DNA of 64,000 nt, from the NCBI GenBank assembly GCA_036261135.1, contig DATALJ010000108.1, forward strand, positions 15,971-79,970, in the 5' to 3' direction. This stretch comes from Bacteroidales bacterium. GTDB taxonomy: Bacteria; Bacteroidota; Bacteroidia; Bacteroidales; JAAUTT01. The notes under the pieces are model-generated. The model had not been told where the DNA came from. It made no database searches and worked only from the letters and a program-made list of their open reading frames with translations. Below, in pieces: positions 5,626 to 50,847 of this stretch. The translations under genes and the position numbers were made by a program. Position 1 is the stretch's first letter; the number at the start of each line of letters is the position of its first letter.

Positions 5626-5643
5626 TTTTTAAGATTAACACAA

Positions 5644-6240: not shown

Positions 6241-6263
6241 ACAATATTTTTTTTGTCCAAAAA

Positions 6264-6284: not shown

Positions 6285-6313
6285 TAAAAACAAATTGCAA
6301 TTATAATAACCAT

Positions 6314-7720: not shown

Positions 7721-7760
7721 ATCATCCGCGAAAGCTCAAAGGGGATAACACTCGCAAGAT

Positions 7761-7827
7761 GTCATTCCGGCGCAGGCCGGAATCCCTTAACAACGGAGCT
7801 ACGGAGGCCGGCCTACGCCGGAATGAC
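7761..7827. repeat. REP-like hairpin element, short form
   Basis: GTCATTCCGGCGCAGGCCGG ... CCGGCCTACGCCGGAATGAC forms 20-nt terminal inverted repeats with 1 mismatch. It lies between the TolC and MFP genes. Confidence 0.75.
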
Positions 7828-7852
7828 AAATGAAACGCAAAAAAAAGAAAAT

Positions 7853-8917: not shown

Positions 8918-8938
8918 ATAGTTTAACAGATAGAAAAT

Positions 8939-11900: not shown

Positions 11901-12073
11901 ACGGCTTGGGATGGGTTCTTATAGGCGGGTTAACATGTTCCATGTTCCTTTCGCTTATCATTGTTCCAGTGCTTTATGTTATCCTGGATAAACTGGTAAA
12001 AAAGAAATCGAGCGCTGATATTGAAAAGGAACTCATTTACAAAAACAAAGAATTAAAAATAACTATAAACTAA
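8939..12073 (+). CDS. RND multidrug efflux permease (AcrB/HAE1 family)
   Basis: 1044 aa with 12-TM RND architecture and conserved segments such as VGVIVDDAIVVLENIYRH. Confidence 0.95.
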   Translation: MKITDISIKRTTIPVVIFVLLALGGLFSYTLLNKELAPTMDVPINTITTIYPGAAPLEVESSVTKKVEEAVAAIEGIDKITSYSFEGVSMVMIQYKDDVDADLALQECERKINAINENLPENSKDPRFAKFDMNSFPIMTIAANANIPETEFYDLIDQDIKSKLSQIKGVAQVDLIGGNQREIEIKANAQKLQQYGISLLQVQQVIQAANVDFPTGKIKDDNTKYIIRIAGKFENLEQIRNLVVSSKDGSNVKISDVATVVDGTRKPTRLARINGQAAIGLTIQKQTDGNAVEISKEVQTVLADFEKAYAGQNLKFNIASDVSVFTNEAIEGVMIDLVFAIVLVSVTMLLFLHTFRNLVFIFVSIPTSIISTFTFFWMFGFSLNLLTLLAMSIVVGVIVDDAIVVLENIYRHLEMGKSRWQATLDATKEIGITVSSITVVLVAVFLPIGLTVGLTGQVLRSFSIVLVISILLSLLVSFTLVPLLTSRFAKLKEFDRKKPFDRFLLWVEHIITWLRLTMISGTRWALNHKRITIGVSTVLLFGSFYLVGGGFIQTDFMDAGDRGEFLVTMELDRTATLEQTNGMCFAIEKKLLEYPEVKKVFTKVGVKSGTLSVTEAPYGAEFNVQLVDRDKRALNSKLFSKKLQNELGSIFPGPKFKISELSMMGNTTTPLEIYVRSIDFEKAKAYSQIVTRELRDIEGTTDIESSVESGDKEIVIRFDREKLAKLGLTIGEVGSQMYISFEGNRDLKFRDGSNEYDLFISLDEFDRKSKSDIENIAFSNRSGQLIKLSQVADITEGESPSTLIRFKKMPSVRITGNMIGKTVGTVGNEIKARLAQNPMPAGVDVYYAGNMEQQSKSFASLGIAFLASIIFMYLIMVALYDSYIYPMVVMLSLPLSFIGALLALALAGKSLSLFSFMGIIMLMGLVAKNAILVVDYANGLQGKGKKAFIAIIEATNVRFRPILMTNLALIVGLLPIALGSGAGAEWKNGLGWVLIGGLTCSMFLSLIIVPVLYVILDKLVKKKSSADIEKELIYKNKELKITIN

Positions 12074-12113
12074 TGTTTTTCATATTTAAGAAGAGAGCCT
12101 CAAAGTCAAGTAA

Positions 12114-12139
12114 TAAGCGTAGTCAGGAGACTACGCTTA
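12114..12139 (+). terminator. stem-loop downstream of the RND gene
   Basis: TAAGCGTAGTC-AGGA-GACTACGCTTA is a perfect 11-bp stem with a 4-nt loop. No T-run follows. Confidence 0.55.
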
Positions 12140-12220
12140 GCTGAGGAGCTGGCGCGCATTTATAACGCGTGCCATTTACAATGTTTTAGAATAGCTTCTT
12201 CTTTAATTATTTCAATTATC

Positions 12221-12466
12221 ATGAAAACCAAACTAATACTAACCACCCACACGAAAGCATTTGAGTTCTGGACCAATCTACCCTTCATTCCGCGAACCGG
12301 CGAATGGCTGAATGTTAAGGATATTCTGCTTCCACAAGAAATCGATAATATCATACAATCGGCCAATCAATGGAATGGCGAAAAAGGTATTATTCAGTGG
12401 GTTGAATACAGACATGATGATAATGATTTCTTTCTGGAAATCAGGGTATCATGCGAAGATGAATAA
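12221..12466 (+). CDS. hypothetical small protein (81 aa)
   Basis: ORF bracketed by two hairpins. No signal peptide and no recognisable motif. Confidence 0.35.
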   Translation: MKTKLILTTHTKAFEFWTNLPFIPRTGEWLNVKDILLPQEIDNIIQSANQWNGEKGIIQWVEYRHDDNDFFLEIRVSCEDE

Positions 12467-12474
12467 ACATAAAA

Positions 12475-12504
12475 AAAGAGACTATTCTCTCGAATAGCCT
12501 CTTT
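12475..12504. terminator. bidirectional stem-loop between convergent genes
   Basis: AAAGAGACTATTC-TCTC-GAATAGCCTCTTT is a 13-bp stem with 1 mismatch, flanked by an A-run and a T-rich run. Confidence 0.6.
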
Positions 12505-12525
12505 TAAATTTACCTAATCATCAAT

Positions 12526-15500
12526 TTATTGTACGATAAGCTTTTTATTGAGTAATTCTTGCTTACCTACAACTTTCACAAAGTATACACCCGGTGCATA
12601 CCCTGTTATGTCGAGCTCATATACATCCTGATTTTCCGTTTCCACGATTTTAACCATTCTGCCATTACTATCGAGTAGGAATACTTTCACTTTCTCTTTC
12701 TCCATATGCTGAGCAAAGCGAATGTATACTTTTCCCGAAGCAGGATTAGGATACACTTCTGCTGAAACCTGGTTATCATTGTCTGCAATTCCTGTAGCAG
12801 GACTAACAGTAATATATCCGGTCTTTGTTTCGGTATCTGTTGATCCGGTTTTGGAAACAACCAGTTTTACAGTATAAGTACCGGAAGTGGTGTATGTAAA
12901 CGATGGATTTTTGGTTGTTGCATCAACGGTTCCATCGTTGTCGAAATCCCAGGCCCAGGTTGTAGGCGTTCCTGTAGACTGATCAGTGAAATTAACCTGT
13001 AATGGAGCTGAACCAGTGGTTTTATTTGCTGTAAATGCAGCTTCAACCGGAGCAGAAACAGTTATGTAGGCTGTCTTTGTTTCGGTATCCGAAGATCCGG
13101 TTTTGGAAGCAACCAGTTTTACCGTATAAGTGCCAGCAGCCGAATACGTGTACGACGGATTCTGCGTAGTAGCGTCTACTGTACCATCGTTGTTGAAATC
13201 CCAGGCCCAGGTTGTTGGTGTTCCTGTAGATTGATCGGTAAAATTAACCTGGAGTGGAGCAAGTCCTGAAGTTACATTTGCAGAGAAAGCAGCTTCTACC
13301 GGAGCAGAAACAGTTATGTATGCCGTCTTTGTTTCAGTATCCGAAGATCCGGTTTTGGAAGCAACCAATTTTACGGTATAAGTACCAGCTGCCGAATACG
13401 TGAACGACGGATTCTGCGTAGTAGCATCTACTGTACCATCGTTGTTAAAGTCCCAGGCCCAGGTTGTAGGTGTTCCTGTAGATTGATCGGTGAACGAAAC
13501 TACCAACGGACTTACTCCCGATGTTTTATTGGCTGTGAATTGAGCATCCACGGGTACATCAACCCTAATTTCATCAATTCCAATATCCGAGTTTCCACAA
13601 TCAGAAGTAGCCTTAAACCTCAGAACTGCATTTGACGATGTTATGTTCCCCAAATCAACAGAGACTTCTGTCCACTGATAATTGTATGATTCTGTAACTA
13701 AAGCATCCCCGAATGTCAGTCCTCCATCAACTGAGAGATAAACTTTTAAAAAGTCGCTTCCACCCGCATTGATATTCTGAAAGGTTAGTCTTTTGTTTCC
13801 TGCCAATGAAGAAAAATCAATATAAAAATCCAGGTATCCCGACTTGCCGGTATTTGCATAATAAGAATGAAAGCGTGCCGAATGCAAAGTATTTAATGCA
13901 CCTTCAGGACTATATGAACCATAATTATTGGACCAAACCCCTCTTGCGTAACCATCATCCGATCTGCTCCAGGAGGAATCGGTAGTTGCAGGTGAATTAA
14001 TCGCATATATTGAAGGGACATCGCGGGTAGCTCCTCTATTTACCCATTCATTTTCGAAATTCTCGGTAAATGGTAATGGTGCCTTATTGCAGGTTGTTAT
14101 GTATTGATTCTTTATTCGCGAAGCTATTGCTCCCGGTTTTGAGGTTACCAGTTTTACCGAATAAGACCCGATAGTTGTAAAGGTATAAGATGGATTTTGC
14201 GTTGTAGCATCCGTAATGCCGTCGTTATTGAAATCCCATGCCCAGGTTGTCGGTTCACCGGTGGACTGATCGGAAAAATTGACAGTGAAAGGGATTGGCC
14301 CAGTTTTTTTGTCAGCAGTAAATTCTGCGTTAATTGGTGTACTGGTTCCTATAGAAATTTCATCCAATCCGATATCCCAACTGCCATACGAGCCCTTTCC
14401 CTTAAACCGGACGATGCCTGTTGCCGTAGTTACATTTCCTAAATCGACAGTAACCATTGTCCAGGCATCAACAACACCCCTTTTATCAAGTAAATTGAAA
14501 GTAGCACCATTATCAGTAGACAAATACACTTTCAAAGAATCTCTTTCACTATAGCTTAAATACCAAAATGTAAGCGATTTACTTCCAGCAAGGGTGGAGA
14601 AATTAATATAATAATCCAGATTACCCTCTGCGGAAGTACTACATGAGTGGAATCTTGCTGAATGCCCTGTATTATTAGCTCCTACCGGAGTATAGTTTCC
14701 ATACGAACTGCCCCAGGCCCCTCTTTTTTCGCCATCATCATTACGACTCCAGGAATTATTGTCAGTTGCAGGAGAATTTACCACATACAGCGAGGGAACA
14801 TCGCGTGTTGCAGCTCTACTAATCCAATCGCCTTCAAAATTTTCGAATAATGGCAATGAAGCATAGCCACCCACAAAAATGGAGGCATTTTTTGAAATCG
14901 TTTCGGAGGAACCGGTTTTGTATGCCCTAAATTTAACCGAATAAACACCGGGCGTACTATAAGTGTGTGTTGCGTTTTGTGTAGATGCATCTACAGTTCC
15001 GTTGTTATCAAAATCCCACTCCCAATTGGTTGGGGCACCTGTTGATACATCTTTAAAACTCATAGTAAATGGAGCTATACCATAGGGAGTACCTGTATAA
15101 TAATCAGCCTTAACCGGCGATGCAGAAGGACTTTCAACGTAAATCTGATCCAGTCCGATATCACTCATCCCATTATCACCATAGGCAACAAACCGTACAA
15201 CACCTGTAGCAGAATTTACATCTCCCAATTCGACCTTAACATAGGTCCATGATGCAGCAACTTTTTGAACAGAAAGCCCTTTTCCAAAACTTGCCCCACC
15301 ATCTGTTGACAGGAACACTTTCAAGCTGTCCGATCCACTGGTATTGATATACCAAAAGCTTAGTGTTTTTGAACCTGCTTGCGTCGAAAAGTTAAGATTA
15401 AGATCCAGGTAACCACTTCTGCTTGTGCTATAAGTATGAATACGGGCCGAATGGTTTGTGCCATGTGCACCTTGAGGGAGATAACCGCCAGAATAGAAAT

Positions 15501-16518
15501 AATCATCGCGTCTCCACGAATTACTTCCTGTCGAATACTGATTTCTGAAATAAAGCGAAGGAACATCCGCTATGCTATCGCGGTTTATCCAATTGTTTTC
15601 GAAATTTTCGGTAAAAGGTAAACTGGCATAAGTTTGAGGGAGAACAATAATGTAATTGCTTTTTGTTTTTGAGAACGTTTCCGATCCTTTCGTACCTGTG
15701 AATTTAACTGAGTACGTCCCTGGAGTTGTATATGTATAACGGAAACCTTGCGTGGACGCATCTGCCGTACCATCATTATTAATGTCCCATTCCCACGCAG
15801 TTAAATCGATTGACGAAGAATCGGCAAACTGAATAGTAACCGGAGCCATTCCCGTATGTCTGCTGGCGAAAAAATCTAGCGTAATTGGAGTTGTAGGTGT
15901 TGTAACGCTTACATTATCGATACCTAAATCATCAGCGCCATAATCGCCTATTCCAACAAAGCGCAATACACATGTTGCTGATGTGGTTGATCCCAGGCTA
16001 ACCGAATATTTTGTCCATTTATTGGTTGGGTTGGTATTTAATTTAATAATAGGTTCCCCAAATGAAGTGCCGCCATCGGTAGAAAAATAGACCTTTAAAC
16101 TATCTACACCACTGGGATTAATATACCAAAAGGTCAATGTTTTTGTATCCGCATAACCCGAACAGTCGAGGTACAAGTCTAAAACACCTTTATTCTTCTT
16201 TGGCACAATATAAGCACGAAATCGGGCCGAATGGTTTGAGTAATTTGCACCGGAAGGGGAATATGCACCTCCCATACCACTCCATGCTCCACGATTCTGG
16301 CCATCATCATCCCTGCTCCAGGATGAGTCCGTAGTTGCAGGGGTATTCTTCCAATACGCAGAAGGGACATCGCGGGTAGCATCTTTATTTACCCAGGTAC
16401 CCTCAAATTGCTCATTAAAAGGCAAAGGAGCATACGTTTGTGCCGAATTTTTCTGATTTACGAAAAACCCGAAAAAAGATAAAGCAAGTAACAGAATGTA
16501 AAATTTCTTCATACGCAT
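12526..16518 (-). CDS. T9SS-secreted modular protein: 4 MAM/choice-of-anchor-J-like modules + 6 PKD domains + Por C-terminal sorting domain
   Basis: Signal peptide MRMKKFYILLLALSFFGFFVNQKNSAQ. The module (PLPFxENFExxW...RDVPSxY...SWSRxDDG...HSARFH...LTFWYIN...DSLKVYLSTDGGxTFG) occurs four times. PKD motif FxDxSTGxPTxWxWDFxNDGTxDA...Y occurs six times. C-terminus VYPNPASGKVYIRF...GVYFVKVVGKQELLNKKLIVQ. Confidence 0.85.
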   Translation of the reverse strand: MRMKKFYILLLALSFFGFFVNQKNSAQTYAPLPFNEQFEGTWVNKDATRDVPSAYWKNTPATTDSSWSRDDDGQNRGAWSGMGGAYSPSGANYSNHSARFRAYIVPKKNKGVLDLYLDCSGYADTKTLTFWYINPSGVDSLKVYFSTDGGTSFGEPIIKLNTNPTNKWTKYSVSLGSTTSATCVLRFVGIGDYGADDLGIDNVSVTTPTTPITLDFFASRHTGMAPVTIQFADSSSIDLTAWEWDINNDGTADASTQGFRYTYTTPGTYSVKFTGTKGSETFSKTKSNYIIVLPQTYASLPFTENFENNWINRDSIADVPSLYFRNQYSTGSNSWRRDDYFYSGGYLPQGAHGTNHSARIHTYSTSRSGYLDLNLNFSTQAGSKTLSFWYINTSGSDSLKVFLSTDGGASFGKGLSVQKVAASWTYVKVELGDVNSATGVVRFVAYGDNGMSDIGLDQIYVESPSASPVKADYYTGTPYGIAPFTMSFKDVSTGAPTNWEWDFDNNGTVDASTQNATHTYSTPGVYSVKFRAYKTGSSETISKNASIFVGGYASLPLFENFEGDWISRAATRDVPSLYVVNSPATDNNSWSRNDDGEKRGAWGSSYGNYTPVGANNTGHSARFHSCSTSAEGNLDYYINFSTLAGSKSLTFWYLSYSERDSLKVYLSTDNGATFNLLDKRGVVDAWTMVTVDLGNVTTATGIVRFKGKGSYGSWDIGLDEISIGTSTPINAEFTADKKTGPIPFTVNFSDQSTGEPTTWAWDFNNDGITDATTQNPSYTFTTIGSYSVKLVTSKPGAIASRIKNQYITTCNKAPLPFTENFENEWVNRGATRDVPSIYAINSPATTDSSWSRSDDGYARGVWSNNYGSYSPEGALNTLHSARFHSYYANTGKSGYLDFYIDFSSLAGNKRLTFQNINAGGSDFLKVYLSVDGGLTFGDALVTESYNYQWTEVSVDLGNITSSNAVLRFKATSDCGNSDIGIDEIRVDVPVDAQFTANKTSGVSPLVVSFTDQSTGTPTTWAWDFNNDGTVDATTQNPSFTYSAAGTYTVKLVASKTGSSDTETKTAYITVSAPVEAAFSANVTSGLAPLQVNFTDQSTGTPTTWAWDFNNDGTVDATTQNPSYTYSAAGTYTVKLVASKTGSSDTETKTAYITVSAPVEAAFTANKTTGSAPLQVNFTDQSTGTPTTWAWDFDNDGTVDATTKNPSFTYTTSGTYTVKLVVSKTGSTDTETKTGYITVSPATGIADNDNQVSAEVYPNPASGKVYIRFAQHMEKEKVKVFLLDSNGRMVKIVETENQDVYELDITGYAPGVYFVKVVGKQELLNKKLIVQ
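12795..13550. repeat. 3 x 252-bp near-identical tandem repeat (PKD domains 4-6) inside the T9SS gene
   Basis: CCGGAGCAGAAACAGTTATGTA recurs at 13047 and 13299, exactly 252 bp apart. The encoded 84-aa units are nearly identical (VEAAF(S/T)AN...TKTAYITVSAP). Confidence 0.85.
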
Positions 16519-20232: not shown

Positions 20233-20985
20233 TTATCTTTTGGTTCGCACAAGCGACAAAACTCCGTTTATAAACGTTAAAGGATGCACAGGATTGCCTG
20301 GCACATATAAATCGATGGTATGTTTATCGAGAAATGACCGGTTAATTGCCGGACTATCAACGAATATGCCACCACTAATAGCATCTGTTCCCGCTAAAAT
20401 AATTATTTTGGGAGAAGGGATTGCGTTATACGTCATTTCTAGTGCGTCAGCCATATTGTGAGAGATAGGACCGGTAATTACAATCCCATCGGCGTGGCGG
20501 GGCGATGCCACAAACTCAATCCCAAAGCGGCCCATATCGAAGTTTACATTACTACATGCGTTCAACTCCCATTCGCAGCTGTTATCGCCGGCAGCCGAAA
20601 CCTGACGGAGCTTAAGCGATCCTTTAAAGAAGGAATAAATCTCCTTGCGTATCTTGTCTGGATTAACCTCTATGGGGGCATCCACGTTTTCACCGAGTAT
20701 TAAACGGTGCCTATCGTTGGTTGATAGCTTGTAATCCTTTGTAAACTTTATTTTCTCCGGGAATTCACGGGCACATTCCCCACAGAACGTGCATTTACCC
20801 AAATCTATCCGTACAGGATTTGAAAGAATAGCATCTGTGGGGCAAAGCGCCACTAATGACAGTTCATCAACCTTTACATCGGTAATTACAGGCCTTCCCC
20901 TGAAAATACCAGGAACCTGCGCTTTGGTAACGTCTGGTATGTATTGTTTACCCTGATGGTATAATATTTTAATATTTTCCAGCAT
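20233..20985 (-). CDS. ferredoxin-like domain fused to a NuoB/HycG-like small subunit, proximal-cluster ligands degenerate
   Basis: The C-terminal half, GRFGIEFVASPRHADGIVITGP...PSPKIIILAGTDAISGG...YVPGNPVHP, matches the NuoB/HycG pattern. However D, D and N sit where cysteines are expected. The N-terminus carries LCPTDAI and CTFCGECAREFP. Confidence 0.75.
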   Translation of the reverse strand: MLENIKILYHQGKQYIPDVTKAQVPGIFRGRPVITDVKVDELSLVALCPTDAILSNPVRIDLGKCTFCGECAREFPEKIKFTKDYKLSTNDRHRLILGENVDAPIEVNPDKIRKEIYSFFKGSLKLRQVSAAGDNSCEWELNACSNVNFDMGRFGIEFVASPRHADGIVITGPISHNMADALEMTYNAIPSPKIIILAGTDAISGGIFVDSPAINRSFLDKHTIDLYVPGNPVHPLTFINGVLSLVRTKR

Positions 20986-21027: not shown

Positions 21028-22527
21028 TTATAGATCGTGGCCACAATAAGAAAGATTGAAGCTCTTGTTACATATAGGAAAATCGGAGATTTCATTGTTT
21101 CGTACCGCCAAGGCTAACGCCAACCAGTTATGGAATGAAGGATCCTTAATTTTATATGTAGCGAGCTCGCCTGCATTATCGGTTATAGCGGCATGGCAGA
21201 TCTCACCGCGCCATCCTTCGGTTAATGAGATGGCAAATGTATTTGGCATTAAGCGCATATCAGCTTTAGACGGTGTTACCTGCTCAGAGACCTGATTCAA
21301 CAATTGTTTTATATAACCAAGCGATTGCTGAACCTCCTGTTTTCGTATCTGCGTGCGGGAATATACATCGCCATGATGTTTAATAATAGGTTCATGATTG
21401 AACTCACTGTACAAGCCGTATGGATGCGACTTACGAATATCCCGTTCCAGCGCATTCATACGCGCTGCCATACCCACCGTACCGATCGATTCCAATTGCT
21501 CTTTGGACAATGCTCCTGTACGTTCCAAGCGTGAAAGTGCGCTGGGTAAGGTCGAAGTCTGCTGGTACATTTCGTAGAATTCGGGTTCGTAAGCGTTTAA
21601 AATTTCTATAAACCGATTGGCCAGTTCTGCTGTATACGGATATTGGTTTCGTCCCGGGCGAATAAGTCCCTTGGCTAAACGATTACCACACCACTCCTGA
21701 AAATAGTTAATAATAGGCGTTCGCAATCGTCCAAACACGGAGCTTCCCAGTTGGTAAGCTATATCGGTGCTTATTGCACTTAAATCGCCGGTATGAATGG
21801 CAACCCGTTCGATTTCCTGCGCCAAAGTCCTTGCAAATAATATATCGCGACCGGCTTCAAATCCCGAAAGGCTCTCCCACAAATAGGCAAAGGCAGTGGT
21901 ATGCCCTACAACACTGTCGCCAGCAATATTTTCCGCTAACGTAGTGCGCTGCAACAACTTCTTTTTATTCAGGAATAAGTGTTCTACCCCCCTATGCTGA
22001 AATCCGAGTTGTATTTCAAGGTGCAAAATCTGCTCTCCGTTGCATACAAAACGGAAATGCCCAGGCTCTATAACACCTGCATGAACCGGACCTACTCCTA
22101 CTTCGTGCAATTCCTCACTTTCAATACCAAAGAAAGGGTAATTGCCAATTACCTGGCTTTGATCAGCCCTGTTGAATGGGTATTTTACAGGTTTTAGCCA
22201 TGGGTGGCCAACAAAGTTAACACCAAAGTTTTCGTGTATCTCACGTTCAAATTTCTCAAACGAGAGATGCCTGGTTGTAAAAGACTCCAATGAGGCTTTA
22301 GGATCCACAATGCACGAAGAAACCATGATATTGTGCTGCTGATCGTCTGCAATACAGCAAATAAGCTTTATGCCATTATCGGTACGATACCCAAAATAGG
22401 TAGCACAATGCCTTTCCTCATGTTTATCAATCAACCCTGTATTCAGTGCAAAGAATGTATTATAATCCAGTTCCGGAATACTGCTTACCGGTGTTGTTCC
22501 CTGGTTTTGTATAGTGATATATTCCAT
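21028..22527 (-). CDS. fused NuoC-NuoD/HycE(HyfG)-like large subunit lacking NiFe ligands
   Basis: GPVHAGVIEPGHFRF...LEIQLGFQHRGVEH is the conserved group-4 hydrogenase/NuoD core. The CGxC site reads NIAGDSVVGH and the C-terminus reads SFNLSYCGHDL. There is no CxxC anywhere in the 499 aa. Confidence 0.8.
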   Translation of the reverse strand: MEYITIQNQGTTPVSSIPELDYNTFFALNTGLIDKHEERHCATYFGYRTDNGIKLICCIADDQQHNIMVSSCIVDPKASLESFTTRHLSFEKFEREIHENFGVNFVGHPWLKPVKYPFNRADQSQVIGNYPFFGIESEELHEVGVGPVHAGVIEPGHFRFVCNGEQILHLEIQLGFQHRGVEHLFLNKKKLLQRTTLAENIAGDSVVGHTTAFAYLWESLSGFEAGRDILFARTLAQEIERVAIHTGDLSAISTDIAYQLGSSVFGRLRTPIINYFQEWCGNRLAKGLIRPGRNQYPYTAELANRFIEILNAYEPEFYEMYQQTSTLPSALSRLERTGALSKEQLESIGTVGMAARMNALERDIRKSHPYGLYSEFNHEPIIKHHGDVYSRTQIRKQEVQQSLGYIKQLLNQVSEQVTPSKADMRLMPNTFAISLTEGWRGEICHAAITDNAGELATYKIKDPSFHNWLALALAVRNNEISDFPICNKSFNLSYCGHDL

Positions 22528-22530: not shown

Positions 22531-23958
22531 CTACTTAGGTAAAATGTTTATAGCATCGTATATAAGGCTGTTAAAAGCGGCAGGCGGATTTAAACCAAGC
22601 CACATAGCCGCAAACAACAGTAAATACTGGGTTAACGATTCCCATGGATTTATTTTAGGCACACTTCCTTCGTCAAATCCGACAGGTGGTGTGAACAGAA
22701 TCTTGAAAATGTTCTTACCAAAGGCCCAGATGATAATGGTAAGCAGCAAAAGCACCAGCAGCAAGACGATGATAAAATGACCTTCGAAAAGCGACCGGAA
22801 AATAAGAAATTCACTCACAAACATTCCTGAAGGAGGCATCGCGGTTGCGCTTATAAAACCAATTAATAGCACAATGGCGCCAGCAGGGTTATATTTAAAG
22901 TAGTTGCCTACGTGAAATATGCTCTTATTTTGAAAGACACGATACAACTGGTTGAACTGAAAGAACAGACTCGATTTAACAAAGGTATGAAGTACAATAT
23001 GCAGTAATGCCGCATAATAACCAATACCCCCTGCCGCAATTCCAAGCATTACAATACCCATGTGCTCAATGCCCGAGTAAGCCAGCATGCGTTTGATGTT
23101 CATCACCTTGGTCATGTAAACCGTAGCTACGAAAATAGAAAGTATAGCAGAAATAAGGATTACAAGGTTAGCCCAATGATGCAGCGGGGTATGGGCAACA
23201 ACTGCGTAGAAACGGAAGAACCCAACAAACCCCATATTCATAAGCACACTGGCAAGCAATGCTCCTACAGGTGCTGGCGCTGTATCTTTAGCATCGATAC
23301 CAGCCGTATACATAGGAACAAGACCCAACTTAGCTGTAAAACCAGTAAAAATAAACAGAAATGCCAGCCGCAACCAGAATGGATTCAGTTTGCTGCTATT
23401 GGCCATTAAGTTGGCGAACGAAAGATCATCGGACCCGGCATGCTGCAGCGATAGGCTTAGAAACAATATCCCAATAAAAATAAAGGTAACACTGATAGCA
23501 CAAATAAATACGTATTTCCAAACTCCCTCCAATGCTAACTTATTACGGTGATGATATATCAGAGCCGAAGCACTAAGCGTTGTTAGTTCGGTAAATATCC
23601 AGATTACCGCTATATGATTGGATAAGTAAGCTGCAGTAATAGATGTAATAAGAATGATAATGGATGAGAAATATATAGCCCTGGATTGAGGCGTTTCCTT
23701 ATGGGTTTCGATATATATATAACTATGAATAAGTGCAGGAATACTTACAATACTAAGCGTTATAAGAAGCAATAAGCCCAAAGAATCGATAGTGAAGTAT
23801 TCCAGCTCGGTGGCCTTGTGATGGTAGCAGCTGTAAATGGTAAATCCCAATTGCAATGCAGCAAAAGCCCCAATAAGTATATTATTCAAAAGCTTGTTCC
23901 GGTTAACGAAAAGCAAACCGCCAATTACAAATGCCCCTATTAAATAAATTGCAGTCAT
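22531..23958 (-). CDS. NuoN/HyfF-like antiporter-type membrane subunit
   Basis: 475 aa, about 14 TM helices, Mrp/NuoLMN-type proton-conducting membrane transporter pattern (...AKLGLVPMYTAGIDAKDTAPAPVGALLASVLMN...). Confidence 0.8.
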   Translation of the reverse strand: MTAIYLIGAFVIGGLLFVNRNKLLNNILIGAFAALQLGFTIYSCYHHKATELEYFTIDSLGLLLLITLSIVSIPALIHSYIYIETHKETPQSRAIYFSSIIILITSITAAYLSNHIAVIWIFTELTTLSASALIYHHRNKLALEGVWKYVFICAISVTFIFIGILFLSLSLQHAGSDDLSFANLMANSSKLNPFWLRLAFLFIFTGFTAKLGLVPMYTAGIDAKDTAPAPVGALLASVLMNMGFVGFFRFYAVVAHTPLHHWANLVILISAILSIFVATVYMTKVMNIKRMLAYSGIEHMGIVMLGIAAGGIGYYAALLHIVLHTFVKSSLFFQFNQLYRVFQNKSIFHVGNYFKYNPAGAIVLLIGFISATAMPPSGMFVSEFLIFRSLFEGHFIIVLLLVLLLLTIIIWAFGKNIFKILFTPPVGFDEGSVPKINPWESLTQYLLLFAAMWLGLNPPAAFNSLIYDAINILPK

Positions 23959-23973: not shown

Positions 23974-24606
23974 TTAATAATCTTTTAAATTGCTCAACTG
24001 GTCCACATCTACATCCTTAAACACGTCGCCAATCTTTTGTAAGAAGATACCCAGAATTAATACGCTGGCAAAGATGTCAAGCATTACGCCAAGGTTCACC
24101 AGCATGGGCATCTCATTACCTACAGCCAGCGAAAGTACAAACACGCCGTTTTCTATAATCAGGTAACCAATTACGTGTGTAATAATCTTTCTGCGTGATG
24201 CAATAAGGTACAATCCTGTAAACAGCGTAGAAAGCGCTACAATAAAGAATATCTTGTCCAGTTTGGTATCCTTAATGGAATTGGCGAGCAAAATCGTCAC
24301 AATAATAATAACCGTGGTAATTACCAGCGAAAGAAAATTTGGGAGGTAAGGCTCAGCCTCACGTGTAATATTATTCCGTTTCAACAGGTAACCCAAAAAG
24401 ATAGGGACAGCAAGCGCTTTGAACACAACCGTTTCCAAAAGTATGAGCACCAGGTTCAATGTATTGATCTCGTGCAGTTGAAGAAATGTAACTCCAAAGA
24501 GAATAAAGCCCTGTGCGGTTAGTATGTTGACATAGGTAATGATCCTGTTGGCAATTGAAAGGTACAACAGCGTAATAATAAATGTAATGAGCAAAACGTT
24601 TATCAT
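23974..24606 (-). CDS. HyfE-like small membrane subunit (NuoK-related)
   Basis: 210 aa, six to seven TM helices. It sits between the NuoH-like and NuoN-like genes, as hyfE does. Confidence 0.65.
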   Translation of the reverse strand: MINVLLITFIITLLYLSIANRIITYVNILTAQGFILFGVTFLQLHEINTLNLVLILLETVVFKALAVPIFLGYLLKRNNITREAEPYLPNFLSLVITTVIIIVTILLANSIKDTKLDKIFFIVALSTLFTGLYLIASRRKIITHVIGYLIIENGVFVLSLAVGNEMPMLVNLGVMLDIFASVLILGIFLQKIGDVFKDVDVDQLSNLKDY

Positions 24607-24618: not shown

Positions 24619-25524
24619 TTAAATGAATTTTCCCAAAACCAACAGTACTCCGAAAAATATAAGCAGGCTCACCGACGAAAGCGCAAATATGAACTGTGCA
24701 TTATGGCTCATGCGGAAACGGGCCATAAATGATTCGATTAAACCTACTGATATGGCAAACAGCACCTGCGCCCCGGCGAATATGGCCAATGAAACAGGTA
24801 ACGAAAGTCCGCCAATAAAGAGATTCGTAATAATTGCACCATACATGGCAAATTTCAGATAGCCGGCAGACAGAATCAGTCCCAGATCGAAACCGCTATT
24901 ATCAAGTACAATCACCTCGTGTACCATAGTAAGCTCGAGATGTGTTTTTGGGTCGTCTATTGGCATTCGACTATTTTCGATCATCGCAATCATCACCAAC
25001 ACGAAGGTTGCAAGAGCACCCAACGCGTAAGTTATGTAACTACCGAGATGTAAAGCCGCAAATATGTCGTGAAAAGAAGTATAGCCAGTTAACAAAGCAA
25101 ATGAGCCCATAAGAATGAAGAATGCAGGCTCAGCAAACATCGAATACAATGCTTCGCGGCTGGCGCCCATGCCTTCGAAACTACTTCCCGTATCGAGTGC
25201 GGAAATGATAGTAAAAAACTTACCCAGGGCCAGTAAATAGGCGAAAAAGATGAAATCTCCGTCGAAACTGATCAGTCCTTTTTCACTTCCAAAGGGTACA
25301 GCGCATAAGGCCATTGCAACAGAAGAGAAATAAACAACCGGAGCCAGCTTAAACACAAAACTGGTGGTTTCGCTATATACAGCACCTTTCTTGAACAAAC
25401 GAACCACATCTTTCAAGGGCTGGAAAATGCCAGGGCCTTTCCTTCCCGCAGTAATGCTCTTGGTTCGGATAATTATTCCTGTGAAAAACAGGCTGGCTAT
25501 AAGAATTAATAATAAGCTCAGCAT
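24619..25524 (-). CDS. NuoH/HycD(HyfC)-like membrane subunit
   Basis: 301 aa. The N-terminus IIRTKSITAGRKGPGIFQPLKDVVRLFKKG matches the NuoH/HycD signature (GRxGPxxxQPxxDxxKLxxK). Confidence 0.8.
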   Translation of the reverse strand: MLSLLLILIASLFFTGIIIRTKSITAGRKGPGIFQPLKDVVRLFKKGAVYSETTSFVFKLAPVVYFSSVAMALCAVPFGSEKGLISFDGDFIFFAYLLALGKFFTIISALDTGSSFEGMGASREALYSMFAEPAFFILMGSFALLTGYTSFHDIFAALHLGSYITYALGALATFVLVMIAMIENSRMPIDDPKTHLELTMVHEVIVLDNSGFDLGLILSAGYLKFAMYGAIITNLFIGGLSLPVSLAIFAGAQVLFAISVGLIESFMARFRMSHNAQFIFALSSVSLLIFFGVLLVLGKFI

Positions 25525-25525: not shown

Positions 25526-27553
25526 TTATATATGATTTAAAAAGTTCAAAAATACGGTTATCTTTTCGATCAGTAAGGGAACCACTATTACAGCGCCTAT
25601 AAACAATATCCCATAGAGGATGTAAATTTGAAGATTCCCATTTTGCAGGAAGGCAAAACGATCGATCGCTGTTTTTATCCATAATAGGGGTTTATCAATA
25701 AATATACGCTCAATTTTATCGTATGGGTGCGTTTCGTAATGTTTCGACGAGGGAAACACCTCTGTAATTTCAATTTCTTTTTTACCTATGTCTAAAACAG
25801 GCTTCACCAGTTTAGTATAGCTGCGCACAAATGAATTAGCTGTGTACTGTAGCTTGGTATCGGTAGTTTCATAAGCGCAACCCCAGGTAGGTTGTACTTC
25901 TACATCTCTGTTTTTTGTGGCAAGCTTACGTAATCCATATATTATAAGAATGAGTACAAGAAAGCCCGCACTGTACCAGTTAATGTCGAATAGTGAATCG
26001 ATAGCACCAACCTTGATCAGGTTCAGATTAAACACCCCCTCCTGAATAAAAAGACGGACGGGCTGTTGCAAGATCGTAATAAACAAAGTGGGGAACAATC
26101 CTATCAAAACAATCAATGTACCTATCAGATATAATGGGAAAAGCTGCCAGAATGTAACCTCCTTGATATGTTTATGCTCCTTGTGGCGCATGTTACCTAA
26201 AAATACAATTCCAAATGCCTTGGTAAAACAGAGTAAAGCAAGTCCTCCGATCATCACAAGCCCCAGAATGGCGAAAATAATTACAATTAACGATACCAGA
26301 CCGGCACTAAACAGCCAGTTGTAAATTCCACCATATATCAAAAATTCCGACACGAAGCCATTCAAAGGAGGCAATCCGCAAATAGCAAGAGCAGCAAGCA
26401 AAAACAAGAATGCCGTTTGGGGCATCTTCTTCACAAAGCCACCCATTCGCTCAATGTTCATGGAATGGATCTTCTGGTAAATATTTCCTGTACTAAAGAA
26501 CAGAAGCGACTTAAACAACGAATGATTCAGCGTATGCAGCAAAGCACCGGAAAATCCGAGTATAGCCATCCATTTATTGGCTTCGCCGATGCCTAAACAT
26601 CCAATACCTATTCCAATGCCAATTATTCCAATGTTTTCGATACTGTGATAAGCCAGTAACCTTTTCAAATTGTGCTGTATAATAGCTAACATCACTCCAT
26701 AAACGCCCGAAATAAGCGATACAAATAATATAATAAAACCAATACTGGTATAATCCGCTTTTATAAGCAATAACATGCGAAGAATACCATAAATTCCTAT
26801 CTTAATGATAACTCCAGACATCATACCCGATACATGCGAAGGAGCAGCAGGGTGTGCATAAGGCAGCCATGTATGAAAAGGAACAAATCCAGCCTTTATA
26901 GCAAAGCCAATAAAGAAACACAAGAAAAGAACTGTTCCTGCGAGTAGCGTCTGGCTCGAAGAAAAGGCTGTTATTGCAGAGAACTGATAACTACCCGTTT
27001 TATATGCAACAAATATGAAAGCCAGCATAAGGAACACAATAGAAATATGCGATTGCACCAGGTAATTGATACCTGCCTTTAATGTGTCCTCCTTGTAATG
27101 CTCAAAAATGACCAATACAAATGCCGAAACAGCCATTATTTCCCAGCAAAGAAGAAATGCCATCCCGTTTTGTACTCCACAAATGCTGATTAGCCCGGCA
27201 TGAGTAAGTATAAAAGCAATACAATGCAGTGTAATATTGTTTTTTTGGTTAATATACTGCCGCATATAATGAAAACCGTATATTCCACCGGTTATCATCG
27301 TAAAGTTAATAGTCAAAATAAACCATGCGGACAAGGCATCAACGGAAACAGGCACTTGGCCGAACGAAGTGGCACCTGTTAATACAGTTTCGAAGGTATG
27401 TCCCATCAAAGCCTGCGCTGCAACAAAAGAACTTAACAAAGCATTTGTAATTACAGCAACAAGCGCAATAATCCCCTTGCCTTTGGTTCCGGCAAACAGG
27501 ATAGCGCCTATAGCTATAAAAACGATGATTAAAAAAACACTAATCAATGCCAT
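25526..27553 (-). CDS. NuoL/HyfB-like antiporter-type membrane subunit (copy 2)
   Basis: 675 aa with TWLPYAHPAAPSHVSGMMSGVIIKIGIYGILR and ...HSLFKSLLFFSTG. C-terminal extension containing TWGCAY. Confidence 0.85.
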   Translation of the reverse strand: MALISVFLIIVFIAIGAILFAGTKGKGIIALVAVITNALLSSFVAAQALMGHTFETVLTGATSFGQVPVSVDALSAWFILTINFTMITGGIYGFHYMRQYINQKNNITLHCIAFILTHAGLISICGVQNGMAFLLCWEIMAVSAFVLVIFEHYKEDTLKAGINYLVQSHISIVFLMLAFIFVAYKTGSYQFSAITAFSSSQTLLAGTVLFLCFFIGFAIKAGFVPFHTWLPYAHPAAPSHVSGMMSGVIIKIGIYGILRMLLLIKADYTSIGFIILFVSLISGVYGVMLAIIQHNLKRLLAYHSIENIGIIGIGIGIGCLGIGEANKWMAILGFSGALLHTLNHSLFKSLLFFSTGNIYQKIHSMNIERMGGFVKKMPQTAFLFLLAALAICGLPPLNGFVSEFLIYGGIYNWLFSAGLVSLIVIIFAILGLVMIGGLALLCFTKAFGIVFLGNMRHKEHKHIKEVTFWQLFPLYLIGTLIVLIGLFPTLFITILQQPVRLFIQEGVFNLNLIKVGAIDSLFDINWYSAGFLVLILIIYGLRKLATKNRDVEVQPTWGCAYETTDTKLQYTANSFVRSYTKLVKPVLDIGKKEIEITEVFPSSKHYETHPYDKIERIFIDKPLLWIKTAIDRFAFLQNGNLQIYILYGILFIGAVIVVPLLIEKITVFLNFLNHI

Positions 27554-29568
27554 AAATTCAGTATAGTTCCAATGAATACAAAGAGCACAAACAAGATTCC
27601 ATAAAGGACATAAGCCTGTACCTTACCGTTTTGTACAAATTTAAAAAGGTCTATAAAATATTGAAGTCGATCCGTTACAGGATTGATCATGCGTTGTTCA
27701 AAAAAATCTAGATAATGAGAAGAATATCTGCGGGTTTTCGGAAAAATCTCATCGCTTTTCAGCTCGGTGTATGACTTTTTCTCAATCAATACAAAATGAA
27801 ACAACTTGCCCAGCGACTTGGAGAAAGATTTCCCGGTATATTGAATTTTAGACGTAGGCGCAACATAGCCACAGCCCCATGTTTGCCCATAATTAATTTC
27901 CTTAGCCACAGAAACACGCGAACGCAACAGGTATATCAATCCAACAAAAGCCAGGAACAACAGAGAGTATAAACTAATCTGCTGCATTACAGACGCATAG
28001 TGAAAGAAAGCTGGATTAGCCACCATATTTAAATTGGGGAATATGCCTCCAACTACCGTATTCATCAACTGAATGAAATAACCGGGAAGAAAAGCTACCA
28101 ACAGCATAAACCCAACAACAACATACTGAGGGACCAGCATAATCTTAGAAACTTCTTCCGGTTCGTGGTGTAAATGTTGGCGTTGGGTGCCAAGAAAAAT
28201 GGTACCAAAGGTTTTCGTAAAAGTAAGTATTGAGATACCACCTATAATGCTTAATCCGGCAAAGGACAGCACCATCAGGGTTATTTCTGCGATGTTCGAC
28301 GACTCAATGCCATTCAACAACCCGCAATAGATAATGAATTCAGAAATAAAACCATTAAATGGGGGAATTCCTCCAATGGCAATAGCGCCAAGCAGGAATA
28401 AGACTGCTGTTTGGGGCATTTTCTTTGCCAATCCGCCCAGTTTATCCATATCGCGTGTATGTGTTTGCTGGTACACAGCGCCAACAGAGAAAAACAACAG
28501 CGACTTAAACAGCGAATGGTTGAGTACATGCAACAAAGCGCCACCAAATCCCAGGAAAACTAGGAGATTATTGCTTCGGCCCAAGCCTATTAAACCAAGT
28601 CCCATTCCTATTCCAATAATACCAATATTTTCGATGGTACAATACGCCAACATCCTTTTAAAATCGCGATGTACCGCAGCGTTCATTATACCAAACAAGC
28701 CGGTTAATACGGATACCGAAAGAACTATCTCTCCAAGTAATATAAAATCTGACTTTACAAAGGTTATAACACGCAAAATACCGTAAATACCCATTTTTAC
28801 AATTACCCCCGACATTACCCCAGATACATGCGAAGGTGCAGCGGGATGTGCATGAGGCAACCATGTGTGTAACCCTATAAACCCGGCTTTTAAACCAAAA
28901 CCTGCAAAAAACAGAAGAAAAAGCCAGATATTGGCATTAGTGCCAAAAAACGTTCCTATTCCTTTAAAATCGAATGTTCCGGTTTGAAAATATACCCAGA
29001 TAAAAGCAATGGTAAGAAACACAACACTCAGGTGCATTTGGACCATATAGTTTATGCCTGCTTTCAATACCTTGGGGTCGGTATGCTCAAACAATACAAG
29101 AAACATAGATGATATGGACATGATTTCCCAAGCTACCAGAAAGGCGATGCTGTTTTGGATCATGCAAACCCAAAGCATAGAAGACTGGAAAAGCAAAAAG
29201 AAAATCCAATGTACTGTTAATATGGACCGCAAAGGTTTATACGCTTTTAAATAGCCTATACCATAAAGAATGCCAGCGGTAGAGATTAGGTTTATAATCA
29301 GAATGAACCATGCAGAGAGTGGATCAATTCGAAAAGGTATCACACCTAAAAAAGTGCCTCCGGCAACGTTCACTTCAATTCCATTGGAAATGATGCCCTG
29401 GATCGCAATATAACTTGTTATCAGTGCGTTTAAACCGGCAAATACAAAAGTTGAAATGGCTTTTACACGTTCAGGCAGTAGTATTACCAACGTAATACCT
29501 GCCACCAATACCCCAAAATGCAATAATAAAAGAAAGCTATTCAATTCAAAACCTTCAAATCCCATCAT
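27544..29568 (-). CDS. NuoL/HyfB-like antiporter-type membrane subunit (copy 1)
   Basis: 674 aa, a paralogue of the next gene (TWLPHAHPAAPSHVSGVMSGVIVKMGIYGILR; C-terminal TWGCGY). Overlaps the next gene by 10 nt. Confidence 0.85.
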   Translation of the reverse strand: MMGFEGFELNSFLLLLHFGVLVAGITLVILLPERVKAISTFVFAGLNALITSYIAIQGIISNGIEVNVAGGTFLGVIPFRIDPLSAWFILIINLISTAGILYGIGYLKAYKPLRSILTVHWIFFLLFQSSMLWVCMIQNSIAFLVAWEIMSISSMFLVLFEHTDPKVLKAGINYMVQMHLSVVFLTIAFIWVYFQTGTFDFKGIGTFFGTNANIWLFLLFFAGFGLKAGFIGLHTWLPHAHPAAPSHVSGVMSGVIVKMGIYGILRVITFVKSDFILLGEIVLSVSVLTGLFGIMNAAVHRDFKRMLAYCTIENIGIIGIGMGLGLIGLGRSNNLLVFLGFGGALLHVLNHSLFKSLLFFSVGAVYQQTHTRDMDKLGGLAKKMPQTAVLFLLGAIAIGGIPPFNGFISEFIIYCGLLNGIESSNIAEITLMVLSFAGLSIIGGISILTFTKTFGTIFLGTQRQHLHHEPEEVSKIMLVPQYVVVGFMLLVAFLPGYFIQLMNTVVGGIFPNLNMVANPAFFHYASVMQQISLYSLLFLAFVGLIYLLRSRVSVAKEINYGQTWGCGYVAPTSKIQYTGKSFSKSLGKLFHFVLIEKKSYTELKSDEIFPKTRRYSSHYLDFFEQRMINPVTDRLQYFIDLFKFVQNGKVQAYVLYGILFVLFVFIGTILNLWH

Positions 29569-29778: not shown

Positions 29779-30390
29779 ATGATCGGAGTAATCACGGGTA
29801 ACATCATCAATTCCAATAAGTACGATGCGAAGTTTTGGCTTCCTATACTCAAGCACACCTTATTGCAGTACGGAACCGAAACCAATACATGGGAAATCTT
29901 CCGGGGCGATCATTTTCACCTGGAAATCGGCAAACCCGAGCTCTCGCTTTTGGTTGCCATTCATATCAAAGCGGCCATAAGGCAGGTAAAAGGCCCCGAT
30001 GTGCGAATGGCCATAGGCATTGGCGAAAAAGGGAATAATAGCACCAAAATGTACGAAAACAATGGTAGTGCCTACATTTTTTCGAATGAAGAGTTTCATA
30101 AGCAAAAACAGCCCTTATCCTTAAAAACACAATGGCCGGAATTCGATAAGGAATACAACATTCACCTCGCACTTGCCTCTATAATCATTGACGGATGGAC
30201 CACTAATGCCGCAAAAACCATCAACACCATATTCGAAAGCCGGTCGCCATTATCGCAAGCCGAAATTGGCCAAAAACTAGGCATTAAACAATCTGGCACC
30301 AGCCAACGCTTGGCGCGCGCAAACTACAAAGAAATTATTGAGTTCGAAGAATTGTTCTGTAAGAAGGTTATTGAGCTGATTGGCGCTTAA
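29779..30390 (+). CDS. SatD-family-like putative transcriptional regulator (N-terminal cyclase-like fold, C-terminal HTH)
   Basis: MIGVITGNIINS..., ...IFRGDHFHLEI... and ...RMAIGIGEK... follow the SatD pattern (ITGDIxxS / GDEFQ / GIGIG). C-terminal HTH is LSQAEIGQKLGIKQSGTSQRLARA. Confidence 0.45.
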   Translation: MIGVITGNIINSNKYDAKFWLPILKHTLLQYGTETNTWEIFRGDHFHLEIGKPELSLLVAIHIKAAIRQVKGPDVRMAIGIGEKGNNSTKMYENNGSAYIFSNEEFHKQKQPLSLKTQWPEFDKEYNIHLALASIIIDGWTTNAAKTINTIFESRSPLSQAEIGQKLGIKQSGTSQRLARANYKEIIEFEELFCKKVIELIGA

Positions 30391-50846: not shown

Positions 50847-50847
50847 C

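Follow-up and report, generated by a model that had tools for sequence, protein, structure and literature searches.

The DNA considered here is a stretch of 64,000 nt (the window) from a Bacteroidales bacterium (assembly GCA_036261135.1, contig DATALJ010000108.1, positions 15,971-79,970). It carries a compact operon of seven minus-strand genes, the sixth of which encodes a homologue of the large subunit of group 4 [NiFe]-hydrogenases without the cysteines that bind the Ni-Fe centre. We show that the product of this gene is the large subunit (EhrL) of a complex of the Ehr class, which received its name in 2005; the small subunit encoded next to it, EhrS, has by alignment lost two of its three iron-sulphur (Fe-S) sites. 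An earlier, sequence-only reading of this DNA had drawn attention to the large subunit and listed Ehr only as a comparator. Because the protein belongs to an already-named class, the novelty implied there was too high, and the more unusual feature, which that reading missed, is the loss of Fe-S sites from the adjacent small subunit.

The large subunit and its ligand positions

EhrL, 21028..22527, minus strand (22527 to 21028): ATG start, 499 amino acids, stop codon at 21028-21030; a NuoC-like region (residues 1 to ~135) fused to a NuoD/HycE-like region (~140 to 499), with no Ni-Fe ligands
EhrL residues 146-157, GPVHAGVIEPGH, 22057..22092, minus strand: hydrogenase-type beta1-beta2 loop with the conserved Glu154; Ile153 at the position of the complex I quinone His
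EhrL residues 199-209, ENIAGDSVVGH, 21901..21933, minus strand: replaces R-x-C-G-x-C-x-x-x-H; A202 at Cys1, S205 at Cys2, D204 a family-specific Asp
EhrL residues 487-499, NKSFNLSYCGHDL, 21031..21069, minus strand: replaces D-P-C-x-x-C-x-x-R; S493 at Cys3, G496 at Cys4

The full-length open reading frame (ORF) is as previously described, save that its strand had not been given, and the strings quoted from it are all present: GPVHAGVIEPGHFRF at residues 146-160, LEIQLGFQHRGVEH, AENIAGDSVVGHTTAF at residues 198-213 and SFNLSYCGHDL at the C terminus. So are the nine cysteines (41, 57, 58, 72, 162, 280, 444, 486 and 495), in the contexts listed for them and with no CxxC pair among them. Pfam recognizes PF00329 (NuoC-like) followed by PF00346 (NuoD-like); a match to PF00374 (NiFeSe_Hases) is absent from EhrL in the Pfam scan, whereas the cysteine-bearing relative at locus L087 does match this family. 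NCBIfam scores all fall far below their curated cut-offs, with 144 bits against a required 360 for the NuoD equivalog NF004739 and 118 against 459 for TIGR01962. The kinship with group 4 large subunits claimed from the sequence is nonetheless clear from the best PDB matches, found with HMMER, which are MbhL of Pyrococcus furiosus (6cfw_L, E = 2.2e-28) and HycE of Escherichia coli (7z0s_E, E = 2.3e-27); similarity to hydrogenase subunits reaches 1e-28 as against 1e-18 for NuoD. An AlphaFold2 model (predicted TM-score, pTM, 0.75) has its best fold match in HycE (7z0s_E, TM-score 0.68 over 499 residues), followed by fused NuoCD chains and MbhL. The segments that form the pocket (124-179 and 464-499) have a per-residue confidence (pLDDT) below 50, such that the model is usable for the fold match and not for the geometry of the site.

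At the N-terminal ligand site, residue-level HMMER alignment sets EhrL LAENIAGDSVVGH opposite LAERMCGICSFSH of MbhL and LSDRVCGICGFAH of HycE. Where these two read RMCGICSFSH and RVCGICGFAH, EhrL has N200-I-A202-G-D-S205-V-V-G-H209, and the R-x-C-G-x-C-x-x-x-H motif is absent. At the C-terminal site HMMER places SLDPCY of HycE opposite SFNLSY, and a MAFFT alignment with E. coli HycE and HyfG pairs SLDPCYSCTDR with SFNLSYCGHDL; in place of the D-P-C-x-x-C-x-x-R/H motif (D-P-C-Y-S-C-T-D-R in HycE) stands N491-L-S493-Y-C-G496-H-D-L. The four Ni-Fe cysteines of MbhL and HycE therefore fall on A202, S205, S493 and G496, in agreement with the sequence-only claim that all four are substituted. The Arg of the first motif has become N200, its His is kept as H209, and the C terminus of EhrL coincides with the end of mature HycE.

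Some of the remaining cysteines were weighed as possible ligands. C495 lies one residue ahead of the fourth ligand position, but it is variable among 200 orthologues (158 Cys, 34 Ser and 7 Ala) and is therefore not a shifted ligand. Cysteines 41, 57, 58, 162 and 444, three of them in the NuoC-like domain, are each present in at least 198 of the 200 orthologues. They were considered as a new metal site and rejected as a family feature, being fixed in the close clade alone and hydrophobic elsewhere in the superfamily.

The quinone site of complex I is likewise missing. Its head-group ligands, which we take to be Tyr87 and the beta1-beta2-loop His38 in the numbering of Thermus thermophilus Nqo4, correspond in alignments to Nqo4 and E. 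coli NuoCD to G203 and I153 of EhrL, both of them essentially invariant in the family. EhrL is therefore not a quinone-pocket NuoD, as had been suspected, and it retains the hydrogenase-type loop GP[VI]HAG[VI]IEPGH with Glu154. The alignments show a HycE-type scaffold that has no complex I quinone Tyr/His and cannot bind a Ni-Fe centre; on these grounds EhrL is neither a hydrogenase nor a NuoD.

Assignment to the Ehr class

Ehr complexes are related to the group 4 hydrogenases but have no Ni-Fe cysteines in the large subunit (PMC6349859, PMC10284858, PMC3569383); they have been placed near the group 4f hydrogenases (PMC10284858), and the HydDB classifier was trained to leave them out as non-H2-metabolizing (PMC5037454). 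NuoC-NuoD and NuoI-NuoB fusions have been described for them (PMC6349859, Suppl. Note 4). In Geobacter sulfurreducens, GSU0739-45 comprise EhrA-1 (NuoL-like), EhrA-2 (annotated as hydrogenase-4 component B), EhrB (annotated as formate hydrogenlyase subunit 4), EhrC (HyfE-like), EhrL and EhrS (PMC7894505, PMC13194489). The window has each of these features: a group 4-type large-subunit homologue without Ni-Fe cysteines, a cluster that combines NuoL/HyfB-, NuoH-, HyfE- and NuoN/HyfF-like subunits with a large and a small subunit, and both fusions, PF00329 with PF00346 in EhrL and Fer4 with PF01058 in EhrS. The gene is thus shown to be ehrL, the likeness to the Geobacter complex being drawn from the published subunit list and not from a sequence alignment.

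A homologue search with EhrL returned 4520 clusters (50% identity) at E <= 1e-3, 499 of them at E <= 1e-30. The best 150 clusters (32-51% identity) are nearly all Cys-less and share an [AS]-G-D-[ST] N-terminal site and a K-S-F-[ND]-L-S-Y-x-G-x-D-L C terminus, with CGxC…LCYxC in just four representatives. A neighbour-joining tree built on the NuoD-like domain of 118 sequences, 102 of them Cys-less representatives (no bootstrap and no curated Ehr reference), puts the window EhrL deep within the Cys-less radiation. The four Cys-bearing sequences form a small clade near its base, HycE and HyfG of E. coli fall outside it, and NuoCD is the outgroup. Named members of the superfamily come from Acidobacteriota, Longimicrobiales, Thermodesulfovibrio, Acidimicrobiales and Thermoplasmatota, and those of the Cys-bearing clade from Planctomycetota.

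A close relative of EhrL is present in over 580 species-level genomes, almost all from Bacteroidia (Prolixibacteraceae, Paludibacter, Lentimicrobiaceae, Draconibacterium, Salinivirgaceae and Rikenellaceae). Homologues are publicly labelled 'NADH-quinone oxidoreductase subunit C' or 'NADH dehydrogenase subunit' and, at JGI, 'Ni,Fe-hydrogenase III large subunit'. An orphan EhrL homologue (P0123, 500 amino acids, 49% identical) occurs at L088:4001-5503 (ENA ERZ27256806, k141_577306) with AGDS and KSFDLSYCGHDL. It sits between mutS and a 532-residue Pur_ac_phosph_N-like gene, is unaccompanied by membrane or small-subunit genes and was found on ten contigs.

The small subunit and its Fe-S sites

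EhrS, 20233..20985, minus strand: 250 amino acids, an N-terminal HycF/NuoI remnant plus a NuoB/HycG-like domain (PF01058, 1.3e-18; Fer4 weak)
EhrS residues 48-71, CP...CxxCxxC, 20773..20844, minus strand: the sole complete four-Cys [4Fe-4S] site remaining
EhrS residues 134-137, DNSC, 20575..20586, minus strand: proximal ligand 1 is Asp134 (78/78) and ligand 2 is Cys137 (68/78, not invariant)
EhrS residues 199-205, GTDAISG, 20371..20391, minus strand: proximal ligand 3 is Asp201 (77/78)
EhrS residues 229-235, PGNPVHP, 20281..20301, minus strand: proximal ligand 4 is Asn231 (77/78); His234 78/78

Conservation in EhrS was counted over 78 orthologues. Its best PDB matches are MbhJ (1.7e-21) and HycG (1.2e-16), and alignment to these, HyfI and NuoB puts D134, C137, D201 and N231 at the cysteine positions of the proximal (N2-type) [4Fe-4S] cluster, three of the four ligands being replaced. 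In the ferredoxin domain, aligned to HycF, HyfH and NuoI, the first CxxCxxC has been deleted, and Phe75 takes the place of the final Cys in the second. The residues retained are C48, the 'CP' cysteine of motif 1 (77 of 78 orthologues), and C65, C68 and C71, each in all 78. In the 2x[4Fe-4S] ferredoxin fold, the CP cysteine of motif 1 and three cysteines of motif 2 ligate exactly one cluster; we take this one to be the cluster adjacent to N2 (N6b), on the T. thermophilus structure. These alignments show that the Bacteroidales small subunit has lost the proximal cluster and one of two ferredoxin-type clusters, which leaves one of three Fe-S sites and breaks the usual route of electrons into the L pocket.

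The loss is shared with a sister clade. In the next-nearest lineage sampled (L089, 46% identical in the large subunit, as are the percentages below), assigned to Rikenellaceae/Alistipes by small-subunit search, the proximal positions read D/V/E/A. Among the 120 Rikenellaceae/Alistipes sequences listed they read DVEA in 95, DVET in 15, DIEA in 5, DNDA in 3, and DVGA and DVCC in one each, with the four ferredoxin cysteines and H234 present in every one of these listed matches. Within Bacteroidales EhrS, an Asp at ligand position 1 and His234 are invariant, and position 3 is mostly acidic. All four proximal cysteines are kept in three other Cys-less Ehr lineages, namely L085 from Acidobacteriota (45%), L090 (42%) and L086 from Acidimicrobiales (35%), and both ferredoxin motifs in L085, L090 and the Cys-bearing Planctomycetota operon L087. 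On these comparisons cluster loss is not a general Ehr trait and is common to the window clade and Rikenellaceae/Alistipes. No description of it was found in the searchable literature, which did not include Marreiros 2013 and Coppi 2005, the primary papers on Ehr. The kind of complex is already known, and the Bacteroidales variant with one Fe-S site is the element added here, with no prior description in that literature.

The membrane arm and the operon

EhrA-1, 27544..29568, minus strand: 674 amino acids, HyfB/NuoL-type antiporter-like membrane subunit, first gene of the operon (PF00361, 5.6e-53)
EhrA-2, 25526..27553, minus strand: 675 amino acids, second HyfB-type antiporter-like subunit (PF00361, 2.7e-52), overlapping EhrA-1 by 10 nt
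EhrB, 24619..25524, minus strand: 301 amino acids, NuoH/HycD-type membrane subunit (PF00146, 3.5e-36)
EhrC, 23974..24606, minus strand: 210 amino acids, small HyfE-like membrane subunit with a NuoK-like C-terminal half (NCBIfam HyfE 1.8e-18, under cut-off; PF00420 weak)
EhrD, 22531..23958, minus strand: 475 amino acids, HyfF/NuoN-type antiporter-like subunit (PF00361, 1.4e-41)

The order of the operon is ehrA1-A2-B-C-D-L-S, with intergenic gaps of -10 to +42 nt, and the best NCBIfam match of EhrA-1 is hydrogenase 4 subunit B (485 bits, under the cut-off of 667). Comparison with E. coli NuoL/M/N and HyfB/D/F finds the Glu of transmembrane helix (TM) 5, the Lys of TM7 and the Glu of TM12 in all three antiporter-like subunits, and the TM8 Lys in the two that are HyfB-like. 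In EhrA-1 these are Glu148, Lys227, Lys258 and Glu410, which align with key residues of NuoM and HyfB; EhrA-2 keeps E138, K220, K251 and E403; and EhrD keeps E124, K210 and E383, with N241 at the TM8 position, an Asn as in HyfF. Nine charged residues of EhrB (R28, D39, D90, R123, E132, D190, E197, R269 and R271) recur unchanged in HyfC, HycD and NuoH, and its loop region MPIDDPKTHLELTMVHE is invariant in 68 orthologues. By these alignments the membrane arm is shown to keep the charged residues of the complex I/Mrp ion-translocation machinery, and the complex probably still moves ions.

Of 80 related loci in reference genomes, 49 are complete and show all seven genes in this order, and the truncated ones follow it as far as their contigs reach. 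No conserved partner enzyme or regulator was found beside the operon, the most frequent non-operon family occurring in just 8 of the 80 loci, and the gene cluster is therefore self-contained. Formate dehydrogenase, hyp genes and other partners are not linked to it in this set; nor are Ni-Fe maturation genes (hyp, hycI endopeptidase) present as a conserved neighbour there or among the large ORFs of the window, the remainder of which have typical Bacteroidota functions. The adjoining FabH gene (downstream) and helix-turn-helix (HTH)/SatD-like gene (upstream) were considered as operon partners and set aside as local accidents that do not recur in the 80 loci. The latter is a divergent 203-residue gene (29779-30390, plus strand) with weak SatD-family and HTH (sigma-70 region 4/MarR) matches; since it is not a conserved neighbour elsewhere, it is probably not a dedicated ehr regulator.

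An Rfam scan of the whole window returned no family at the gathering threshold, tRNA included, and no riboswitch upstream of the operon. A sigma-70 promoter and terminator scan around it gave counts equal to the shuffled expectation, in a scan that does not cover Bacteroidota promoters.

Conservation and selection

Among 200 EhrL orthologues (65-98% identity), E199, G203, D204, N487 to F490, S493, Y494, G496, D498 and L499 are each present in all 200, H209 in 199, G208 in 198 and H497 in 197. The sequence-only reading held that orthologues with CxxC pairs would point to a sequencing or assembly artefact; a Cys pair at the Ni-Fe ligand positions is found in none of the 200, and the substitutions are therefore not an artefact. 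In the 102 more distant Cys-less representatives, D498 is found in 100, E154, G203, S493 and G496 in 96 each and D204 in 95. H209 (69 of 102) and H497 (31 of 102) are not conserved at the level of the superfamily. Glu154 is also present in all CCCC-type sequences, where position 204 is Ala, Ile or Val, and Asp204 is by this distribution a superfamily-wide gain of the Cys-less class. Of the replacement motif suggested earlier, G-D-S-x-x-G-H, the first part stands as a near-universal G-D-[ST], whereas x-x-G-H is conserved in the Bacteroidia clade alone.

The ratio of non-synonymous to synonymous substitution (dN/dS, Nei-Gojobori) is 0.047 for EhrL, 0.051 for EhrS and 0.014-0.053 for the membrane subunits, EhrB being the most constrained gene of the operon at 0.014. 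These values derive from one pair only, the window and a 91%-identical orthologue with the same flanking genes (L081), at a dS of ~1 that is near saturation. They are similar to those of the housekeeping neighbours FabH (0.018) and RsgA (0.053), show every operon gene to be under strong purifying selection and agree with the proposal that EhrL is maintained and not decayed.

Comparison with known systems

The closest system is Ehr itself. With Geobacter GSU0739-0745 the window shares a large subunit without Ni-Fe cysteines, the composition and order of seven genes, both fusions and membrane subunits of the HyfB, HyfE, HyfF and HycD types (PMC6349859, PMC10284858, PMC7894505, PMC13194489). It differs in that the small subunit of the Bacteroidales clades is without the proximal and one ferredoxin cluster, whereas the three other Ehr lineages sampled keep the proximal one. 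Ehr has also been reported from Mycobacterium tuberculosis (Rv0081-87 region), Nitrospira, Margulisbacteria, the candidate phyla radiation and ammonia-oxidizing archaea.

The Cys-bearing sister hydrogenases (P0208/P0284, 'Candidatus Wujingus', Planctomycetota), probably of the HydDB group 4f type, share the A-B-C-D-L-S layout, the GP[VI]HAGIIEPGH loop and the N-K-S-F signature at ~33-36% identity. Unlike EhrL and EhrS, they keep CGxC...LCYxC, the PF00374 match, four proximal cysteines and both ferredoxin motifs, and have Ala, Ile or Val in place of Asp at position 204. In one such operon ('Ca. Wujingus' type, L087:11644-12036), a 130-residue PDDEXK_3 nuclease-family gene lies between the large and small subunit genes. 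In the Acidobacteriota contig JAGNHB010000003.1 a second group 4-type cluster (L085:1-1991) lies ~3 kb upstream of the Ehr operon (4936-12515); its genes encode a PF00374-matching large subunit, a NuoH-like protein and a ferredoxin, which places a bona fide hydrogenase beside Ehr.

With E. coli hydrogenase-4 (HyfA-J) and hydrogenase-3 of the formate hydrogenlyase (HycB-G; 7z0s) are shared subunits of the HyfB, C, E, F, G and I types, the antiporter Lys and Glu residues, the acidic residues of HycD/HyfC and, in HycE, the best structural match. Absent here are the Ni-Fe cysteines, the HycI-cleaved C-terminal extension, a separate two-cluster HycF/HyfH, the proximal cluster of HycG/HyfI, the HycB/HyfA and formate dehydrogenase partners, and hyp genes. 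P. furiosus MBH (6cfw) supplies in MbhL and MbhJ the best PDB sequence matches, but it has a Ni-Fe centre and a proximal cluster. MbsL of MBS/Mbx (6u8y) is a far weaker match (3.6e-11), MBS being a precedent for a hydrogenase-derived module without H2 production. Both MBH and MBS have Mrp-type multi-subunit Na+ modules, of which there are none here.

The Q-module of complex I (NuoCD/NuoB/NuoI/NuoH) has a homologous fold, fused NuoC-NuoD as in E. coli and three antiporter-like subunits. The complex described here lacks the quinone Tyr/His and N2, keeps a single member of the N6a/N6b pair and has neither NuoEFG nor NuoA, nor NuoJ and NuoK as separate subunits. Mrp antiporters share MrpA/D-type subunits, in which the TM5 Glu, the TM7 Lys and the TM12 Lys/Glu are conserved, and the lack of an obvious redox drive. 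They are, however, without NuoH-, NuoD- and NuoB-like subunits or an Fe-S cluster, and there are no MrpB/E/F/G-type genes in the operon.

Proposed mechanism and its rivals

The explanation that we find best overall, and hold with middling confidence, is that the gene encodes an Ehr large subunit in a derived Bacteroidales form of the complex, in which ion transport would not be driven through an Fe-S wire to the L pocket. From the interrupted path described above, we infer that electrons wired through Fe-S clusters to that pocket could not drive the complex. As to how it would work instead, our preference, which is tentative and well short of an even chance, is for a redox-independent cation/proton transporter resembling Mrp with a cap. 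It would need no electron donor, and the former active site would have become a conserved acidic and polar network composed of E154, E199, D204, S493, D498 and the C-terminal carboxylate of EhrL together with D134, D201 and H234 of EhrS. These residues may converge in space, and the network would then act as a charge relay or as an ion-loading or gating element linked to EhrB, the remaining EhrS cluster having a structural or redox-sensing role.

A number of considerations weigh against this explanation. The four-Cys site of EhrS is invariant, so an Fe-S cluster must still be needed, and a redox role accounts for it no less well than a structural one. The full chain of three clusters survives in other Ehr lineages, from which it follows that the ancestral function was probably redox-driven, and the Bacteroidales form may use some other electron route or cofactor. 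Mrp antiporters proper are without L and S subunits, and it is not obvious why an antiporter should need them. The Asp and Asp(Glu) replacements in EhrS could merely fill the space vacated by the cluster. To these may be added the low pLDDT of the pocket-forming segments, the single near-saturated pair behind the dN/dS values, the tree without bootstrap or curated Ehr reference, and the fact that the function of Ehr is itself termed unknown in the literature (PMC10284858, PMC6728331).

The first rival is a redox-driven ion pump, in which reduced ferredoxin or another donor passes electrons to the single EhrS [4Fe-4S] cluster and on to an acceptor or cofactor nearby or at the D/C/D/N site, and so drives the membrane arm in the manner of MBH, MBS and complex I. 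The invariance of the cluster cysteines in ~200 small subunits of two clades and the full Fe-S chain of other Ehr lineages, which suggests a redox ancestry, both speak for it. Hypotheses in the literature lean towards redox coupling in Ehr (PMC6349859), and Geobacter contains its Ehr proteins in greater abundance on formate (PMC7894505). Three of the four proximal ligands are gone, however, the fourth is variable, and the large subunit offers neither Ni-Fe ligands nor a quinone Tyr/His. In the geometry of complex I, moreover, a cluster one position further out would be too distant for electrons to reach the L pocket at physiological rates, and no oxidoreductase partner is conserved beside the operon in the 80 loci. 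We regard this pump as unlikely, yet as the strongest of the rivals to Mrp-like transport.

A step less probable is a non-redox catalytic or metal site of carboxylates and His, formed by the remodelled pocket and coupled to the ion gradient by a logic like that of CO2 hydration by cyanobacterial NDH-1MS. The replacements are indeed specific and conserved: D204 has been gained superfamily-wide, and the Bacteroidia clade has fixed H209, H497 and D498 in EhrL and D134, D201, N231 and H234 in EhrS. One report (10.64898/2026.08.03.742399) offers a precedent for coupling of complex I-type modules to non-redox chemistry. The patchy distribution of H209 and H497 across the superfamily is difficult to reconcile with such a site, as are the Val and Ala of the sister clade at two EhrS positions and the lack, in the 80 loci, of any accessory gene that hints at a substrate. 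Convergence of the residues on one site draws no support from the EhrL model, owing to the poorly predicted pocket. We consider it improbable.

A quinone-reducing, complex I-like enzyme with EhrL in the role of NuoD is suggested by the public NADH-quinone oxidoreductase and NADH dehydrogenase labels and by the PF00346 match, but is very hard to sustain given the shortfall from the NuoD equivalog cut-off, G203 and I153 at the Tyr/His positions, the missing N2 ligands and the closer PDB similarity to hydrogenase subunits. Least credible of all are a [NiFe]-hydrogenase that functions by means of unconventional ligands, to which the JGI label would point, a decaying pseudogene and an assembly artefact, since no thiolate is found at any ligand position in the 200 orthologues or ~100 distant representatives, there are no maturation genes nearby, HydDB excludes Ehr (PMC5037454), and the gene has a dN/dS of 0.047 and full-length intact orthologues in more than 580 species genomes.

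On the most far-reaching reading, the Bacteroidales Ehr would be a complex I-type machine without any electron transfer. Its hydrogenase-derived L/S module, in which conserved carboxylates, Ser and His have replaced the thiolates and a single Fe-S cluster is left, would serve as a non-redox ion-binding or gating or catalytic site coupled to three antiporter modules. We consider this reading rather doubtful. Were it true that electron transfer has been abandoned, the complex would represent a new functional class among the relatives of complex I, abundant in gut Alistipes and sediment Bacteroidia, and the 'universal adaptor' module would be able to work without a redox reaction.

Significance

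Known since 2005, Ehr occurs in many phyla (Geobacter, M. tuberculosis, Nitrospira and ammonia-oxidizing archaea among them), and evolutionary schemes place it between the hydrogenases and complex I. In Bacteroidales it is under strong purifying selection, in more than 580 species genomes that include the abundant gut genus Alistipes, and yet is without two of the three Fe-S sites; its function there therefore cannot depend on the canonical electron wire. This makes the Bacteroidales complex a natural 'minimal' Ehr for the study of redox-independent ion transport. The labels 'Ni,Fe-hydrogenase III large subunit' and 'NADH-quinone oxidoreductase subunit C' are wrong on thousands of Bacteroidota proteins, and hydrogenase counts from gut and sediment metagenomes would be inflated where they depend on these labels.

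Other features of the window

Elsewhere in the window, a 1330-residue secreted protein (12526-16518, minus strand) has four MAM-like repeats of ~270 residues, six PKD domains and a type IX secretion C-terminal sorting domain, and marks the organism as a member of the Bacteroidota. A 1489-residue ORF (39239-43708, plus strand) contains a full AcrB-type resistance-nodulation-division (RND) pump (residues 31-1060) and an outer-membrane-factor OEP domain (1302-1484), and is followed by an HlyD-type adaptor at 43712-44899; it is either an unusual fusion of RND pump and outer-membrane factor or a read-through of two genes. Lastly, a trio of the haem-biosynthesis type (48175-52227, minus strand), consisting of ferrochelatase, a flavin amine-oxidase-type (HemY-like) protein and a radical-SAM (HemN-like) protein, is adjoined by a major facilitator superfamily transporter and a TonB-dependent receptor.

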